A DNA stretch of 64,000 bases from Dictyostelium discoideum (lineage: Eukaryota). Numbering within the stretch: position 1 is the first letter of the stretch; the number at the start of each line of letters is the position of its first letter. The stretch spans positions 6,016,001-6,080,000 of the forward strand of contig CM000151.3 of NCBI GenBank assembly GCA_000004695.1. Reading direction: 5' to 3'. The translations under genes and the position numbers were made by a program. Of the stretch, positions 2,482 to 38,661 are shown piece by piece. The notes under the pieces are model-generated. The model was not told the origin of the DNA, did not search any database, and saw nothing but the letters and a program-made list of their open reading frames with translations.

Positions 2482-5400
2482 ATGGATAAATTTAAAGGTA
2501 AAATAAAAGGGATATCCCAACAAAGAGGGGAGCAAGGAAAATTTCAATTTGATTTTAAACTTATAAGTGTTGAAAATTTACCAGTTACTGGTAATTGTTT
2601 TGTATCATGGAAAAGAGGTACAAAATCAGCAAGTAACGGGAAAACAAAAGCTGTTACAATCAATTCAAATAAATCAGCATCATTTAATCATTCTTTTTCA
2701 ATGGTTACAACATTATATAAAGAAAAACCACCAAAGAAAACTTATGAATCAAAAACTATTGCAATTTCAATTAAAGATGTAATTATTATTTTATTATTAT
2801 TATTAGTTATTATTAATTATTATTACTATTATTATTATTATTTTTTATTCTTTTTTTATTTTTTTTTTTTTATTTTTTTTTATTTTAAACCATGTAAAAA
2901 TTAAAGATAAAAATAAAAAATTTACAACAGGATTATTTTTTTTTATATTTATTTTTATCTTTAATTTATTTTTATCTTTTTTTATTTATTTATTAATTTA
3001 TTAATTAATTTATTTATTTATTTATTAATTTTATAATAATAAAAAAATGATATATATATATTTATTTATTTATATAATTATTTTAGGAAAAAAATAAAAA
3101 ATCAATTGCAAAAACAATGATAGATTTAGCAGATTTTACAAATTTTAAAGATGAACAATTTAAATCAATTCAAATTAAACAAAAAAAGGGTGGACCAATT
3201 GTAATTGCAATGAATATAAAGAGTAAAGAGATGGAAATTAATCCAGATGATGAACCAGCAACAGAGACCGATTTAAATTCAAATGATGGTTCCGATGATG
3301 AAGATGGTGAAGATTTTGAACAAGATGAGGATAACTCATCATCGTCATTAAATACCAATAGTAAATATAGTAATACCAATAATATCACTGGTAGACTAAA
3401 TGATGATGATATTTTAGCACCAACAAATGGAGGTGGTGGTGCTTTTAAAAAGATGTCTGCACCAATTTCATCAACTAAATCTGAATCAATTTCATCCAAT
3501 TCATCCACACCAACTAAAACATCAACACCATCAACACCACCATCACATTCAGTTGAACCAACAACCACAGTGAAACCATTTAGTAATGATACAGAGGCAG
3601 AATTGAATGCATTACTCTCAAAACCATCATCTAAACCAAAAACTATAGCAGAACCTGTAAAATCAACACCAGTAGTATCATTATCATCTGCTTCCAACTA
3701 TAATCCAGGTAAAGATAAAGATTGGAAGAGAGAAGCTGATGATGCAAATCATAGAGTTCAACAATTGGAGAGACAAGTGGAAGTATTACAAAGAGATTTA
3801 AAAATGAATCAAAACATTGCAGCCAATGGTGGCGGTGGTGGTGTATCACAACAAGAGTTTGCGGATTTAAAGAAAAGATTTAGAGAGATTTCAGGTGATA
3901 ACATTGATTTAGAGGATAAAGTTAAGGAATTGGAAGAGAAATTAGCAAATGCATACAGACAACAACCAATCTCACAAGCGGCAGGCGGTGCAAGTAGACA
4001 ATTAACCGACCTCCAAGAACAAGTACGTCAAAAGGATGCATCTATTCAAGAGTTAAATATAAAGAATAGACGTTTGGAAAGAGATCTTCAAGATAAGGAT
4101 CAAGAGATTGCAGATCAAACTGAACAAGTTAAATACTATCAAGAACAAGTTAAATCTGCTCAATCCGCTGCACAAAAAGCTATTGCTGCCGCAGCTGCAG
4201 CATCCTCCTCATCAAGTGGACCATCAAATGAAGAGGCACAAGAGGAGATCGCATACTTAAAGAGAGAAATACAATTATTGAAGGATCAACAACAATCATC
4301 ATCGGTTGCAGTTGGTGGTGGTACATTAGAGTTAAAGAGAAGAATTCAAGATCTTACCAGAGAGGTTAAAGAGAAAGACGATGCATTGGCTAAATTGAAA
4401 TTGGGTGGATCACCAACATCAGCAGGTGGTTCATTATCATCAATTGCCGCACAAACCTCTAGTAATTTAACCATTACAAACCTTGAGAAACAAAACACAG
4501 AATTGAATAAAACATTATTAACACAACAACAAGAGATCGATAGATCAAAACAAGAGATTCAACAATTACAACAACAACTTTCACAAGCACAAAAGAAGAT
4601 CAATAGTGTTACCAATTCACCACCACCATCAGTCATTACCACAGAGGAACTATTGAAACGTGAAAATGGTGACCTCAAAGATAAAGTTGCCGCTCAACAT
4701 CACGAAATTAAACGTATTCAAGAGAAATATGATCAATTGAATTCAAGATTCAATGATGAAATCGAAGAGACCAACAATGTAGTCAATGAATTAAGACAAC
4801 GTGAAGAGGGCCTTGCTAGAAAGGTCGAAGAGTTAACTCAAGAGAATCAACAAATGGAACATAGATTGGCCAATGAAATGACATCCGCTTCAGCATTGAG
4901 TATGTCTGCAATGTCTGCACCAAGTAAATTTAGTTCACAAAATAGAGATAAAGATAGACAAGAAAGAGAAAATGCAGAGAGACAACTTGAACTCGCAAAA
5001 ACTGAATTATCACGTGAAAGAGAGAAAACCAAGAGATTCGATAGAGAACTTAAAGACTGCAGAGAACGTATTCGTCTCTTGGAACTTCAAGTTGAAGAAG
5101 GTGGTGGTTCAGTTATCAAACAAGAGAATCAAGATAAGGTTGAAAGTAGACTCATCGAACAATGTATTTACACTCAACCATTGACTTTTGTCGATGGTAC
5201 TGGTTCAGTTGCTTCATCATTATACGAACAACTCACTGATATTTGTGCATTCAGTCAAGAGAATGGTAAACTCTTTACCAAAGTTTATACAGCCCTTCAA
5301 CAAGCACTCGAAAGATCAATGTACAATTCAACAGATTTAGCCTATTGGTTATCAAATATTGCTGGTCTAATCCATTTAATTAAAGATGGTCCAAACAATA

Positions 5401-6498: not shown

Positions 6499-7089
6499 TT
6501 ATTTTGTTGGAATATTCATACGAATTAATTTTGCAGGATTACCAGCAATAATAGAATTATCAGGGAATGATTTGGTGACAACAGAACCAGCACCAACAAT
6601 AACGTTATTTCCTAAAGTGACACCAGGTAAAATTATAACATTACCACCACCCCAAAAATTATCACCAATTGTAATTCCTTTTGTAAAATTTTCATCTGAT
6701 CCGCCAATTCTTTCAGATGGTTCGAATGGGTGTGTAGCTGTATATAATTGAGAGTTTGGACCAATCATTGCGCCATATCCAATTCTAATTGGACCATCAT
6801 CATTTAATATGCAATTATGATTAATAAAGAACTTATCTCCAACATGAATATTAACTCCATAACTAACTTTAATACCTTCACGAACAATCACAATTTCACC
6901 TGTTGAACCAAATAACTGTTTAATAATTTCTGGTCCTTTTTTACCATCATCTTCATCACTACCAATTAAATTATTAAATTGTTTATTTAATCTTCTTGCA
7001 CGTAGTCTTAATTGATCTAATTCTGGATCTTCAAATCTATATCTTAATCCTGTCACCATTTTCTCTCTTTCTGTTAATACCGGTTCCAT
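6499..7089 (-). CDS. Maltose/galactoside O-acetyltransferase (Maa/LacA family, left-handed beta-helix hexapeptide repeats), intronless
   Basis: 196-aa ORF ([11 protein letters not shown]...[40 protein letters not shown]...[25 protein letters not shown]) colinear with bacterial Maa. Confidence 0.9.
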
Positions 7090-7715: not shown

Positions 7716-10322
<2,607 letters not shown>

Positions 10323-10462: not shown

Positions 10463-10864
10463 TTATTTTTGGAAATTTTCTGTTGTTAAATTTTTAAATG
10501 AAATTGGAGTAAATGGTTTTTCACAAAATTTACAATACCATCTTTTATTATCATGTTTAAACGATGGTAATTCATTACATTTCTTACATCTAACATTTGA
10601 TTGTAAATGTTCAATTTGAATTTTATTATTATTATTATTTTTAAGTGGTTCAATTATTTTTTTTTGGTCTTTTGTTTTTTTAATTATAATTGGATTTGAA
10701 TTTGTTAATTTATTTTTTTTTTCTTTTACATTTGATATTTTTTCTTGAGAATTTGAATTAATATTTAATGGTTTTTGGTTTAATAAAAATTCAATTTTAA
10801 TTTTATAATTATCATTATTAAAATTATTATTGTTGTTTGAATTATTAAAATTTGGGTTTATCAT
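10463..10864 (-). CDS. Small protein with C-terminal C4 zinc-ribbon (C-x2-C-x14-C-x2-C, then EKPFTPISF); lineage-specific, paralog of 15763-16185
   Basis: 133-aa ORF with N-rich N-terminus. C-terminus RCKKCNELPSFKHDNKRWYCKFCEKPFTPISF is nearly identical in spacing to the paralog (CKKCNCPPSFRHDKKRWWCGKCEKPFTPISF). Confidence 0.55.
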   Translation of the reverse strand: MINPNFNNSNNNNNFNNDNYKIKIEFLLNQKPLNINSNSQEKISNVKEKKNKLTNSNPIIIKKTKDQKKIIEPLKNNNNNKIQIEHLQSNVRCKKCNELPSFKHDNKRWYCKFCEKPFTPISFKNLTTENFQK

Positions 10865-10994: not shown

Positions 10995-11640
10995 ATTGCA
11001 CACTTTAGTTTTAAATTTAAAAAAAAAAACTAAAAAAAAAGAAAATAAAATAACAAAATTGGAAAAAAAAAAAACAGGATTCAAATTTGATCGATAAAAA
11101 TGGAAATCTATTGGTAGTTTTTAATCATTAACATTGTTATTAGAATTAAAAACAAAACATCACACCAATTTTTTAATTTTTTTTTTTTTTTTAATTACCT
11201 TAAAGGTTTTATTTATTTTTTTTTTAAAAAAAAAAATAAAAAAAAAAGTGGTGATTTTAATATATAATTTTTTAATTACCCAAATATAAAAAAACCTTTT
11301 ATTATTGGTTGTTTTTATTATACCTCACTACAATGAGTTAATTTGATTTTGGCTAGTCAGTTTTTCTTTGTGTGAAAAAAAAAAATAAAAAAATAAAAAA
11401 AAAATAAATATTAATATTTACTAACTGATTTAACAAAAATGAATATAGTAAAAAAAAAAAAAAAAAAAAAAATTATTTAGTATATACCCCACATTTAAAA
11501 CTATTTTTTTTTTTTTACAAAATAAAACTTGACCAACACAAATTTTATAAAAGTTAGCATAATAAAAAAAATAATAATTCCAATGATTAAATTTTTAATT
11601 TAAATAAAAATAAAAAAAATTATAGTAATATTAAAAATTA

Positions 11641-11806: not shown

Positions 11807-12964
11807 TTAAATTGGGATTGTTAATTTATACATGTCATTAACTAATGGACTTCCTGAAATTTCACTGAGTGAACCTCTGCTAAAGTAAAATTCTACACTA
11901 CATTTTCTGATATGTTTGAAATAGAAGCTACCGATTGTACTTGGAATTGGAGTTTGAATATAAGTTTCTGGATCAACTAATGGTAAAATGGTTAATTGAG
12001 TCCATTCATTTGTAATTAAATCAAAACGCCATACATCCATAAAGTTGGTGTATTGATAATTACTTCCACCAATTAAGAAAAGTTGATTTTGATCGGAATA
12101 AATGAATTTGGCATTATCTCTATTTCCTGGTCCTTTGGTTACATCAAAGAGATGTTGCTTCCAAACTTTTGTTGATAAATCAAGACTCCATAAATCGCCA
12201 AGATAATTACATTCATTGGTGGTGTAGGTACTACAATTGGTATAGCCGCCATAGGTGAAAATTGAATCTAATTCTTCATTATAGTGTAAATGATGATGAG
12301 CTCTTGGGGTTGGTGATGCACCTACTACATCGACTTGTTGCCATCCATTGACAGAATCAAAAACAATGGTATCAGTTTTAAGGGCACCTGGAACACGAAT
12401 GAAGGCTGGTAAGGTTGAAGTTGAACCACTGAAAGCATAAGATTTACCTGTTTTGGAGACGGTTTCGGCTTCAACTGAACGATTGGCAAGGTTTTGTTGG
12501 AATGAAGTTTGATTGAGTTCTGTCCAAACGTTTTTTCTAACATCATAACGTTGGGTTGAGTTATAAACTATATTGATACCTCTTCTGAATGGACCACGAC
12601 CACCGGATAAATAAACATAATTTCCTCTTTTATCATGGAACATCATTGTTTCTGCTCTTGGTGTAATTGAACTTGGTGCCATAAGGTTGGTCCAACTTGA
12701 TGTTTTAACATTAAAAACATAAAATGAATTAATTGCTTCATCATTTGGATATGAACCGTTAAGACCTCCAAATACATAGAATAATTCATTTCTTTCATCA
12801 TATGCACTTGAACCATCCCATGCAAGTGGTGGCAAACTTCCTTTTTGTTTTACTTTTTCCCATGAATATTTATTACAATTATCACATTTCTTATGACAAT
12901 CAATTAAACATACCAAAGAAAATAAACAAACCACTATTAATAAAAATTGAGATTTTAAATTCAT
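11807..12964 (-). CDS. Secreted Kelch-repeat beta-propeller protein (galactose-oxidase-like fold), signal peptide
   Basis: 385-aa intronless ORF. N-terminal hydrophobic signal (FLLIVVCLFSLVCLIDC). Repeated YVFGG / YLSGG / TYGGY / FLIGG kelch blade motifs with W residues at blade spacing. Confidence 0.8.
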   Translation of the reverse strand: MNLKSQFLLIVVCLFSLVCLIDCHKKCDNCNKYSWEKVKQKGSLPPLAWDGSSAYDERNELFYVFGGLNGSYPNDEAINSFYVFNVKTSSWTNLMAPSSITPRAETMMFHDKRGNYVYLSGGRGPFRRGINIVYNSTQRYDVRKNVWTELNQTSFQQNLANRSVEAETVSKTGKSYAFSGSTSTLPAFIRVPGALKTDTIVFDSVNGWQQVDVVGASPTPRAHHHLHYNEELDSIFTYGGYTNCSTYTTNECNYLGDLWSLDLSTKVWKQHLFDVTKGPGNRDNAKFIYSDQNQLFLIGGSNYQYTNFMDVWRFDLITNEWTQLTILPLVDPETYIQTPIPSTIGSFYFKHIRKCSVEFYFSRGSLSEISGSPLVNDMYKLTIPI

Positions 12965-13720: not shown

Positions 13721-14238
13721 ATAAAATAATTAATAATTAATAAATAAAAATTAACAAATATTAAAGAAGGAGAAAAAAAAAAAAAAAAAAAATGAAGAAA
13801 AAAAAGGAGAACCTACCCAATCCAAGCATTATCTCCAATTGTAATAGGCTTACCAAATTCTAAACCAGAGTTACGTTCAGTTGGATCAATTGGGTGAGTT
13901 GCAGAATATAATTGAACATTTGGAGCTAACATTGCATTCTTTCCAATTGTAATTGGGCAAATATCTAAAAATATGGCACCAAAATTTGCATAGAAATTCT
14001 CACCAACGTGAATATTGTAGCCATAATCCACTCTTAATGTTGGTTCAAGATAAATCTTTTCGCCAGTTGATCCAAATAATTGTTTGGTGATATCTTTTCT
14101 TTCCAACTTATCCATGCTATTATTAAATCTATGAATAAGTTGTCTGGCTTCGGTTCTACCTTTACATAATTCTTCATCACCTGGGTCATACATTAATCCT
14201 TTGGTCATTTTTTCTCTTTCTGTCATTTTGGTATCCAT
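13488..14238 (-). CDS. Maltose O-acetyltransferase paralog 2 (Maa family), 2 exons
   Basis: Exon 1 is 14238-13817 (ends ...ITIGDNAWIG, donor gtaggt). Intron 13816-13639 is mostly poly(A)/poly(T). Exon 2 is 13638-13488 and encodes [49 protein letters not shown]. The joined protein is colinear with E. coli Maa. The + strand ORF 13522-13740 is an antisense shadow of exon 2. Confidence 0.8.
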
Positions 14239-15762: not shown

Positions 15763-16185
15763 TTATTTTTTATTTTTTTCAAAATTATCTCTTGTTAAAA
15801 TATTAAAAGAGATTGGAGTAAAAGGCTTCTCACATTTACCACACCACCATCGTTTTTTGTCATGTCTGAAAGATGGGGGACAATTACATTTTTTACATTT
15901 GATATCAATTTTCAATTGGTCATTTATTATTTTTTTTTGTGATTTTTCTTTTTTTAAACTAATTTTTTTTTGTTTAAATTTTGTAATTTTTGGACTTTTT
16001 GGGATAATTGATTTTATATTTGTATTAATATTATTATTATTATTATTACTATTATTTTTATTATTATTTGGAATAAAATTAGTTATTGTTGAATAATTAT
16101 CATAACTTTCTGGAAAACCCAAAGGATTTAATAAAAAATTAATCTTTAATTTTTCATTTATTTTATTAAATTGGAAGCTATCCAT
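15763..16185 (-). CDS. Small C4 zinc-ribbon protein, paralog of 10463-10864
   Basis: 140-aa ORF with the same C-terminal C-x2-C-x14-C-x2-C...EKPFTPISF module. It sits in the same position relative to a Maa paralog as the first copy. Confidence 0.55.
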   Translation of the reverse strand: MDSFQFNKINEKLKINFLLNPLGFPESYDNYSTITNFIPNNNKNNSNNNNNNINTNIKSIIPKSPKITKFKQKKISLKKEKSQKKIINDQLKIDIKCKKCNCPPSFRHDKKRWWCGKCEKPFTPISFNILTRDNFEKNKK

Positions 16186-17382
16186 TTTATTGATTTATTT
16201 TTTATTACAATATTTATTATTTGTTTAATTTTTTATTTTTTTTATTTTTTTTTTTTTTTTTTCAAAAAATTATAAAAACAATTTTTTTATTTTGCGATTA
16301 TGGTAATTTTTTATAGTTTATAAGACAAATATAATTGAAAAAAAAGTAATCAACCTTGTCCAATTATTTTCAATTTAAGCAAAAAATAAAAAAATAAAAA
16401 AAATTAAAAAATAAAAATAAAAAAAAAAATTAATAAATTAATAAATAAATGATTATTTTTTTCATTAAAATTATTTAAATAATGTTGCAAGGTATTTAGA
16501 ATTTTTTTGTTAAAAAAAACAAAACCAATTTGGAAAAAAAGGGAATCTTAATGGTAGTGTTTATTTGAGTGTGAAATGTGTTTGGTAGTTATTTTTTTTT
16601 TTTTTTTTTTTTTAATTTTTTTTTTTTTTACATATAATTGATGCACTAAAAAACCCCCTTTGAGTGTGATTGTTTAAAAAAAAAATAAAAAAAATTTATA
16701 AAAAAATAAATTAGTTTTTACTTTTGTTAATCTTTAACAACAAGATATTATCTTTAATAATATTATTTTGACTTACTTAATATCACCACACCAATAAATA
16801 AAAAAGGAAATTAAATTGAAAAAAAATTGATATTTTAAAATTATTGGAATATGTGTTTTTTGGATTATTTGTGTGGTTAAAAAGGGGGGAGAGGGGGTAG
16901 AAATTTAACACATGGCTCACGTGCTCAATCTGGACAGTATAATTATTTTATTAAATACAATGAACACACAAATATAATGGCAAGAAGTGATGTGGATTGT
17001 CAGTTAACATTTTTTATTTTTAAATTTTTTTTTTAATATTGTTAATTATTTTGATTTGTATTTTTTTTTTACTTTTTAAACAATTTTATGTTATCCTTCT
17101 TGTTTTATTCTTTATTATTATTATTTTTTTTTTTTTTTAAGTTTGATTAAAATGATGATAAATACACTGATTTACTCATAAAGGGTTAAAATTAATTGAA
17201 AGTGTTTGTTATAAAATATAAAAAAAAAATATTAAAAAAAAAATTAAAATAAAAAAAAAGAAATCAAAAATAAAAAAAGATAAATAAATAAAAAAAATTT
17301 ATATTGCATATTTAAATTTATTGTTTTATTTTTAATTTTGTTATTTTTTATTTATATAATTTATTTTTTTCAATAAACTATT

Positions 17383-38202: not shown

Positions 38203-38661
38203 ATAATTTTATAAATTAAATATAAATAAATATAAAAAAAAAAAAAAAAAAAAAAAAAACTATAAATAAATAAAAAAATATAATAAATAAATAAATTAAT
38301 AAATAAAAAAAAAAAAAAAATCAATATTATTATTTGTAAATTAAAAAACCAAAAAAAAAAATAATTTTAATAACAAAAAAAAATTTGTTTGATTTCTTTT
38401 TTAAAAATAAATTTATATTAAAATAAAATAAAAATATTAAAAAAAAAAAAAAATCATCCGACGTGGTGAAAAGTGTGAAAGTCTCACCAAAACCACCACC
38501 CCCCCCCCCACTTACACTAATTTTTCCAAAAAAATAAATAAAAAAAAAATAAAAATTAAAAAAAAAAAAAAAAAAAAAAAACTGTAATTATTTTTAGCAT
38601 ATTTTTGTATGATTTACATTTTATTATACACATATAAAAAAAGTTAACTATATATTAATTT

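Follow-up and report, generated by a model that had tools for sequence, protein, structure and literature searches.

Two small genes of Dictyostelium discoideum, DDB_G0275511 and DDB_G0275715, are predicted from sequence comparison to encode proteins with a single zinc finger of the type that is present twice in GbfA (DDB_G0288755). Both lie in the 64,000-nucleotide stretch analysed here (positions 6,016,001 to 6,080,000 of the forward strand of contig CM000151.3, GenBank assembly GCA_000004695.1), which we call the window and whose own numbering is used throughout. GbfA is essential for post-aggregative gene expression and acts as the master switch from early to post-aggregative Dictyostelium development; Schnitzler et al. 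1994 is reportedly the source for the GBF (G-box binding factor, GbfA-like) family of zinc-finger transcription factors in Amoebozoa. Our best explanation, to which we assign a probability of roughly 0.8, is that the two genes are GBF-family paralogs whose products would bind single DNA half-sites and serve as co-regulators or competitors.

Both open reading frames (ORFs) are intact on the minus strand, from ATG to stop, exactly where a sequence-only reading of the window had placed them. DDB_G0275511 (ORF1), a single-finger GBF-like gene, is a single-exon coding sequence for 133 residues at 10463-10864. Its paralog DDB_G0275715 (ORF2), also a single exon, encodes 140 residues at 15763-16185; the stop codon is included in each interval. 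ORF1 agrees in length and at both termini with the DDB_G0275511 row in Additional file 1 Fig. S9 of Forbes et al. 2019 (BMC Genomics 20:890, PMC6873476), and ORF2 is 100% identical to the NCBI entry 'hypothetical protein DDB_G0275715 [Dictyostelium discoideum AX4]'.

A predicted GBF-type zinc finger in two small proteins

The module that identifies these proteins lies near their C-termini. In ORF1 it comprises C93-K-K-C96, 14 residues, and C111-K-F-C114 followed by EKPFTPISF; in ORF2 it comprises C97-K-K-C100, 14 residues, and C118-G-K-C121, again followed by EKPFTPISF. The sequence-only reading had described the C-x2-C-x14-C-x2-C spacing, the trailing EKPFTPISF and the fuller pattern F.HD.KRW.C..CEKPFTPISF, and translation of both frames confirmed all three. 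Among the small proteins the finger takes the form C-x2-C-x5-[FW]-[KR]-H-D-x-K-R-W-[WY]-C-x2-C-x-K-P-F-T-P, plus a short conserved tail. The finger of ORF1 (CKKCNELPSFKHDNKRWYCKFCEKPFTP, residues 93-120) is encoded at 10505-10588 and that of ORF2 (CKKCNCPPSFRHDKKRWWCGKCEKPFTP, residues 97-124) at 15814-15897, both on the minus strand.

A hidden Markov model (HMM) trained on 12 fingers from six GbfA-like proteins, with the small proteins left out, scores 48.1 bits against ORF1 (E=5e-13) and 38.7 bits against ORF2 (E=5e-10). The highest score among the controls, which comprised 10,000 composition-matched shuffles and 899 other ORF segments from the window, was 9.2 bits. Across 13 modules, taken from the small proteins and from GBF fingers, the residues C, C, H, D, R, C, C and F are invariant, and W, T and P are nearly so. 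Because the GBF-only model scores both proteins far above its controls and these invariant residues are common to the two sets, we identify the module of both ORFs, at the level of sequence, as a GBF-type zinc finger.

In an exhaustive phmmer search of 1.84 billion cluster representatives, ORF1 has only 12 matches at E<=1e-3. Beyond the ortholog of ORF1 itself, the three best (E=2.8e-11, 5.9e-11 and 1.4e-10) are proteins of 255-543 residues from Acytostelium, Tieghemostelium and a metagenome contig, each with the module present twice; a Synstelium protein and a Physarum-like one from a metagenome are among the weaker matches. The Tieghemostelium match (E=5.9e-11) bears the name 'G-box binding factor [Tieghemostelium lacteum]', as does a Heterostelium album protein, and its residues agree with those of DLA_04746, the gbfA ortholog in Fig. 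S9 (Forbes et al., 2019). The module is found twice in every GbfA ortholog, and its taxonomic range covers Dictyostelia and Physarum-like relatives. This range agrees with the published placement of GBF and bears out the earlier view that the module is lineage-specific. The GbfA side of the comparison consists of dictyostelid orthologs and the published alignment, not of the D. discoideum GbfA sequence itself: a search with the full-length T. lacteum GBF returned five dictyostelid proteins and no D. discoideum GbfA, with low-complexity words filling the candidate list. A profile of the 44-residue module gave no match in an index of 5.8 billion proteins, where short queries have too few common 5-mers.

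The literature places both genes in the same family. In the catalogue of dictyostelid transcription factors by Forbes et al. (2019), 'GBF' is a family with six genes, and DDB_G0275511 and DDB_G0275715 are aligned there with gbfA in 'CxxC (RPT1) domain 2' of Fig. S9. The GBF family, with both window members, was therefore already described in 2019. The sequence-only reading had instead seen in them an undescribed zinc-ribbon family, specific to the lineage and unconnected with any characterised protein. Annotation gives that idea some appeal: in a Pfam scan, neither the two proteins nor their modules in isolation reach the gathering score of any model, so that, as the same reading held, RanBP2, TFIIS and C2H2 fingers are not matched; a sequence search of the PDB retrieved only non-significant ribosomal zinc ribbons, eS31 and eS27; and NCBI labels both products 'hypothetical protein'. 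We nevertheless regard it as scarcely tenable, and in effect already refuted, given the significant likeness to both fingers of GbfA orthologs and the presence of both genes in the published family. An HMM match to a known zinc-finger family of defined function had been named as grounds for abandoning it; in substance the GBF-finger HMM supplies such a match, with no Pfam model behind it.

Single-finger paralogs rather than GbfA orthologs

Each window protein has one C..C-x14-C..C module only, and the tandem pair of GbfA is not present. In Fig. S9, moreover, domain 1 is gapped for both DDB_G0275511 and DDB_G0275715 (Forbes et al., 2019). We therefore class the two genes as paralogous single-finger members of the family and not as orthologs of GbfA. 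The two-finger tandem marks GbfA orthology, not GBF family membership.

The comparison with GbfA and its dictyostelid orthologs (such as T. lacteum KYQ94449.1 and H. album PN500 GBF) shows both a common core and a distinct architecture. Common to all are the finger signature, which in its GbfA-type form reads C-x2-C-x5-[WF]-[KR]-H-D-K-[KR]-R-W-[WYF]-C-x2-C-x-K-[PA]-F-T-P, the C-x14-C spacing and the taxonomic range. GbfA proteins are 400-700 residues long and have two fingers 60-85 residues apart along with long Q/H/S/P-rich regions. In contrast, the window proteins have 133-140 residues and one C-terminal finger, a Lys-rich stretch before that finger, a K-I-x-F-L-L-N motif and an ISF-x-x-LT-x-x-NF tail.

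The published family also contains DDB_G0278407, DDB_G0271640, DPU_G0065056, DPU_G0068222 and Phypo_08329 (Forbes et al., 2019, Fig. S9). DDB_G0278407 and its orthologs have kept two fingers, unlike the window proteins with one. The closest non-orthologous small relative is DPU_G0065056 of D. purpureum (P0011 in our set), a single-finger protein of 150 residues from outside the D. discoideum species group that is 60% identical over the finger. Its finger is N-terminal (residues 20-41) and it is without the FLLN motif, which reflects either a different architecture or a gene model that is missing an upstream exon.

Fold prediction and other zinc-ribbon families

An AlphaFold2 (AF2) model of ORF1, built on a 21-row alignment, reaches a predicted local distance difference test score (pLDDT) of ~90-93 at residues 91-120 and ~50 elsewhere. 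Two beta strands (109-111 and 116-118) are followed in it by a short helix (121-125), and a 49-residue model gives the same elements. ORF1 is thus predicted to have a zinc-ribbon-like finger in an otherwise disordered basic protein, and the low confidence over its N-terminal motif region suggests disorder there. The model is consistent with the expected four-Cys mini-domain of zinc-ribbon type, for which the sequence-only reading had proposed an AlphaFold check. In Foldseek, the top matches of both AF2 models are mostly zinc ribbons (eL43, RPA12/Rpb9, NudC and eS31).

Several other families were considered and set aside. The best raw Pfam score belongs to the HypA nickel metallochaperone (PF01155), at 19.4 and 13.1 bits against a threshold of 28.9, and this match covers only the terminal CxxC...CxxC of the HypA model. 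The Cys pattern accounts for the weak matches to zf-BED, Sec23/24 and Rpr2. The GATA-type zinc finger (PF00320) represents a large C4 finger family of Dictyostelium; its spacing is C-x2-C-x17-18-C-x2-C, compared with x14 here, and no PF00320 match was found at E<=10.

Ribbons of the IS1595 transposase type and certain archaeal ribbons come closer. PF12760 (Zn_ribbon_IS1595) is the Pfam model matched by the largest number of family modules (9 of 13, best E=8e-4), always below threshold; the best score among relatives is that of the GbfA ortholog P0007, 20.3 bits (E=5.6e-4) against a gathering threshold of 25.4, and in the Pfam scan the two window proteins have no match to it. PF12760 resembles the GBF finger in its four Cys and in its length; in both ribbons a basic/aromatic pair precedes the second CxxC, and an F follows two or three residues later. 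Archaeal ribbons that we refer to as 'RWYC' ribbons, from metagenome-assembled genomes of Thermoplasmata and Bathyarchaeota (P0009), have the same C-x2-C-x14-C-x2-C spacing, an aromatic residue five positions past the first knuckle and R-W-Y-C at the second. They occur at the N-termini of apparent membrane proteins or as six acidic-linked repeats. Their loci are P0009 (L001 68-1522) and L002-L009, and the GBF-only HMM reaches 109 bits over the six repeats; at L003, tandem genes (2986-3582 and 3583-4173) each encode an N-terminal ribbon and then hydrophobic, apparently membrane-spanning segments.

One could envision from these likenesses that the GBF finger diverged from a zinc ribbon of the IS1595 transposase or archaeal 'RWYC' type and that the two genes are relics of a domesticated DNA-binding domain of a mobile element. 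The sub-threshold PF12760 matches favour this view, as do the archaeal repeats, which align with the GBF-finger profile over 25 columns in hhalign (probability 96.9%, E=1.5e-10), and one archaeal protein that itself exceeds the PF12760 threshold (27.4 versus 25.4 bits). Against it, no GBF-type module reaches the PF12760 gathering score, the H-D and K-P-F-T-P signatures are missing from the archaeal and IS1595 ribbons alike, and there is neither a transposase nor any mobile-element feature noticed adjoining the genes. Short Cys-rich profiles also often match through convergence, which could account for the archaeal likeness. We therefore judge this origin quite improbable, and it bears on where the finger came from rather than on what the genes do at present.

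Conserved features outside the finger

Near the N-terminus of both proteins is an 11-residue motif, N-x-K-[IL]-K-I-x-F-L-L-N, that is constant in 7 of 7 small homologs and is a candidate short linear interaction motif. In ORF1 it reads NYKIKIEFLLN (residues 19-29, 10778-10810, minus strand, checked by translation), and N19, K21, K23, I24, F26, L27, L28 and N29 are the invariant positions. In ORF2 it reads NEKLKINFLLN (residues 10-20, 16126-16158, minus strand, from alignment and translation). The core K-[IL]-K-I-x-F-L-L-N has no mention in the published catalogue (Forbes et al., 2019). An 'S-F-[LM]-L-P' motif stands near the N-termini of the GbfA orthologs P0006, P0007, P0013, P0014 and P0018; its F-L-L likeness to the motif of the small proteins is too short for testing and may be due to chance.

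The sequence-only reading had described the N-termini as variable and as acidic or Asn-rich. Variability holds for the Asn-rich linkers, which contain insertions and deletions, but not for the invariant motif. The acidic character was not borne out: the first 40 residues contain 2-4 D/E, and the whole proteins have pI values of 9.8 and 9.9.

Between motif and finger, ORF1 has a Lys-rich stretch, KKTKDQKK (residues 62-69, 10658-10681, minus strand), in which K65 and Q67 are invariant and which may provide a nuclear localisation signal or a contact to the DNA backbone. The Lys-rich stretch of ORF2, KITKFKQKKISLKKEKSQKK, spans residues 66-85 (15931-15990, minus strand, by translation). Behind the finger, the conserved C-terminal tail of ORF1, ISFKNLTTENFQK (10466-10504, minus strand), includes the short predicted helix, and S122, F123, L126, T127, N130 and F131 are invariant in the alignment of small homologs. 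The corresponding tail of ORF2, ISFNILTRDNFEKNKK, lies at 15766-15813 on the minus strand, as placed by the same alignment and by translation.

Selection, paralogy and genomic setting

DDB_G0275511 and DDB_G0275715 are old paralogs that lie ~5 kb apart in the same orientation. Their products are 48% identical across 92 columns (BLASTP E=8e-23), and, in keeping with the earlier claim of a conserved C-terminal module, most of this identity falls in the last 45-50 residues. Over the 49 C-terminal codons, the nonsynonymous rate (dN) is 0.27 and the synonymous rate (dS) is 1.37, which is saturated, for a dN/dS of 0.19. Orthologs of ORF1 in D. citrinum are 84-88% identical, and homologs of ORF2 from another D. 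discoideum assembly, D. cf. discoideum and D. firmibasis are 54-89% identical. The finger, tail and FLLN motif are invariant across the homologs from D. citrinum, D. firmibasis and D. cf. discoideum, whereas the poly-Asn linkers gain and lose residues across species. On the strength of the dN/dS value and of these invariant elements, we conclude that both genes are maintained by purifying selection.

Could the two ORFs instead be duplicated GBF finger exons that are decaying or have no function? In favour of this, both are short and contain much low-complexity sequence, one finger has been lost, and full-text literature searches on both gene IDs retrieved no papers and no functional or expression data. 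However, the frames are intact and dN/dS is low despite saturated synonymous sites. Separate orthologs of the two paralogs also exist in other Dictyostelium species, and in these the finger, tail and N-terminal motif are unchanged. Decay is accordingly very improbable, and we continue to treat the genes as retained GBF-family paralogs.

A tblastn search found no third paralog in the 64-kb window; the remaining matches are poly-Asn low complexity. Two maltose O-acetyltransferase-like genes (PF12464, Mac), at 6499-7089 and 13813-14238 on the minus strand, are themselves paralogs (49% identity, E=7e-43), and each has one of the small GBF-like genes upstream of it on the minus strand. Since the acetyltransferase paralogs (49%) each accompany one GBF-like paralog (48%), an old segmental duplication of a GBF-like and acetyltransferase gene pair is suggested. 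Between the duplicated pairs there are now a DEAD-box helicase gene (7716-10322, plus strand) and a Kelch-repeat gene (11807-12964, minus strand). The helicase-like ORF, which adjoins ORF1, has very long poly-Asn tracts, with well over 100 Asn in its first ~200 residues, and these swamp unfiltered similarity searches that use N-rich queries.

Proposed function

GbfA was identified by its binding to G-rich elements of cyclic AMP-inducible genes and has two putative zinc fingers (Forbes et al., 2019; PMC6873476). The consensus (T/G)G(T/G)G(T/G)G(T/G) is given in the literature for the GBF response element, and sigN promoters contain closely spaced pairs of sites (PMC2257962). By analogy, the most likely function of the window genes, we infer, is to encode small nuclear proteins that bind G/T-rich DNA and act with or against GbfA. 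The finger would chelate one zinc ion through its four Cys and, together with the adjacent basic stretch, would contact G/T-rich (CA-rich) DNA like that recognised by GbfA. The simplest assumption is one finger per half-site. With one finger instead of the two of GbfA, the window proteins would either contact one half-site alone or form pairs by way of the N-terminal motif, and in this way they may be small co-regulators or competitors at GBF-type elements. The earlier guess of a nucleic-acid-binding domain agrees with the published GBF placement.

Alternatively, the proteins may be GBF-family members whose single finger binds protein or RNA instead of DNA and which serve as adaptors that regulate GbfA or another partner. 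The nearest structural neighbours, eL43, eS31, RPA12 and NudC, are ribbons that contact RNA or protein; there is one finger here and two in GbfA; and the conserved FLLN motif and C-terminal tail resemble interaction motifs. On the other side, the finger is common to a protein purified by its binding to G-box DNA, the window proteins are strongly basic with a Lys-rich run next to the finger, and the Pfam model that comes nearest describes a DNA-binding ribbon of a transposase. None of these points against an adaptor role is decisive. We consider such a role unlikely, and DNA binding by these GBF-family paralogs remains our preferred interpretation.

The window also contains sites that resemble the GBF element. 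A cluster of G/T-rich, G-box-like elements lies at 16566-16970, 380-790 bp upstream of DDB_G0275715 (ATG at 16185) in AT-rich intergenic DNA; examples include GAGTGTGAAATGTGTTTGG, GGTGTGG, TGTGTGG...GGGGGGAGAGGGGG and TGTGTGT. A further G-box-like element occurs upstream of ORF1 at 11487-11493. Across the window there are 55 KGKGKGK sites, compared with 29.5±5.7 expected; 8 of the 55 matches fall in a run of ~12 consecutive G (minus strand) at 38496-38510, in otherwise very AT-rich sequence. Feedback onto DDB_G0275715 through its upstream cluster is possible. As evidence for GBF regulation of ORF2 the cluster is weak, as it is one of ~7 equally dense clusters in 64 kb.

Implications

The present analysis mainly corrects the label 'undescribed'. 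It also records that the GBF finger is still without a Pfam model and that the N-terminal motif of the small members is absent from the catalogue. Because the finger profile matches archaeal zinc ribbons, the claim that only Amoebozoa have the GBF family needs qualification.

Two bolder ideas are independent of each other, and we regard the proposal that offers them as a long shot, though not a negligible one. One is that the GBF finger derives from an archaeal 'RWYC' ribbon. The other is that the single-finger GBF-like proteins are modulators of GbfA in the style of a 'microprotein'; seated on single G-box half-sites, or bound to GbfA by way of the FLLN motif, they would tune or antagonise GBF-dependent post-aggregative transcription. 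Small one-finger relatives of GbfA are, in any case, reasonable candidate modulators of the switch between early and post-aggregative development.
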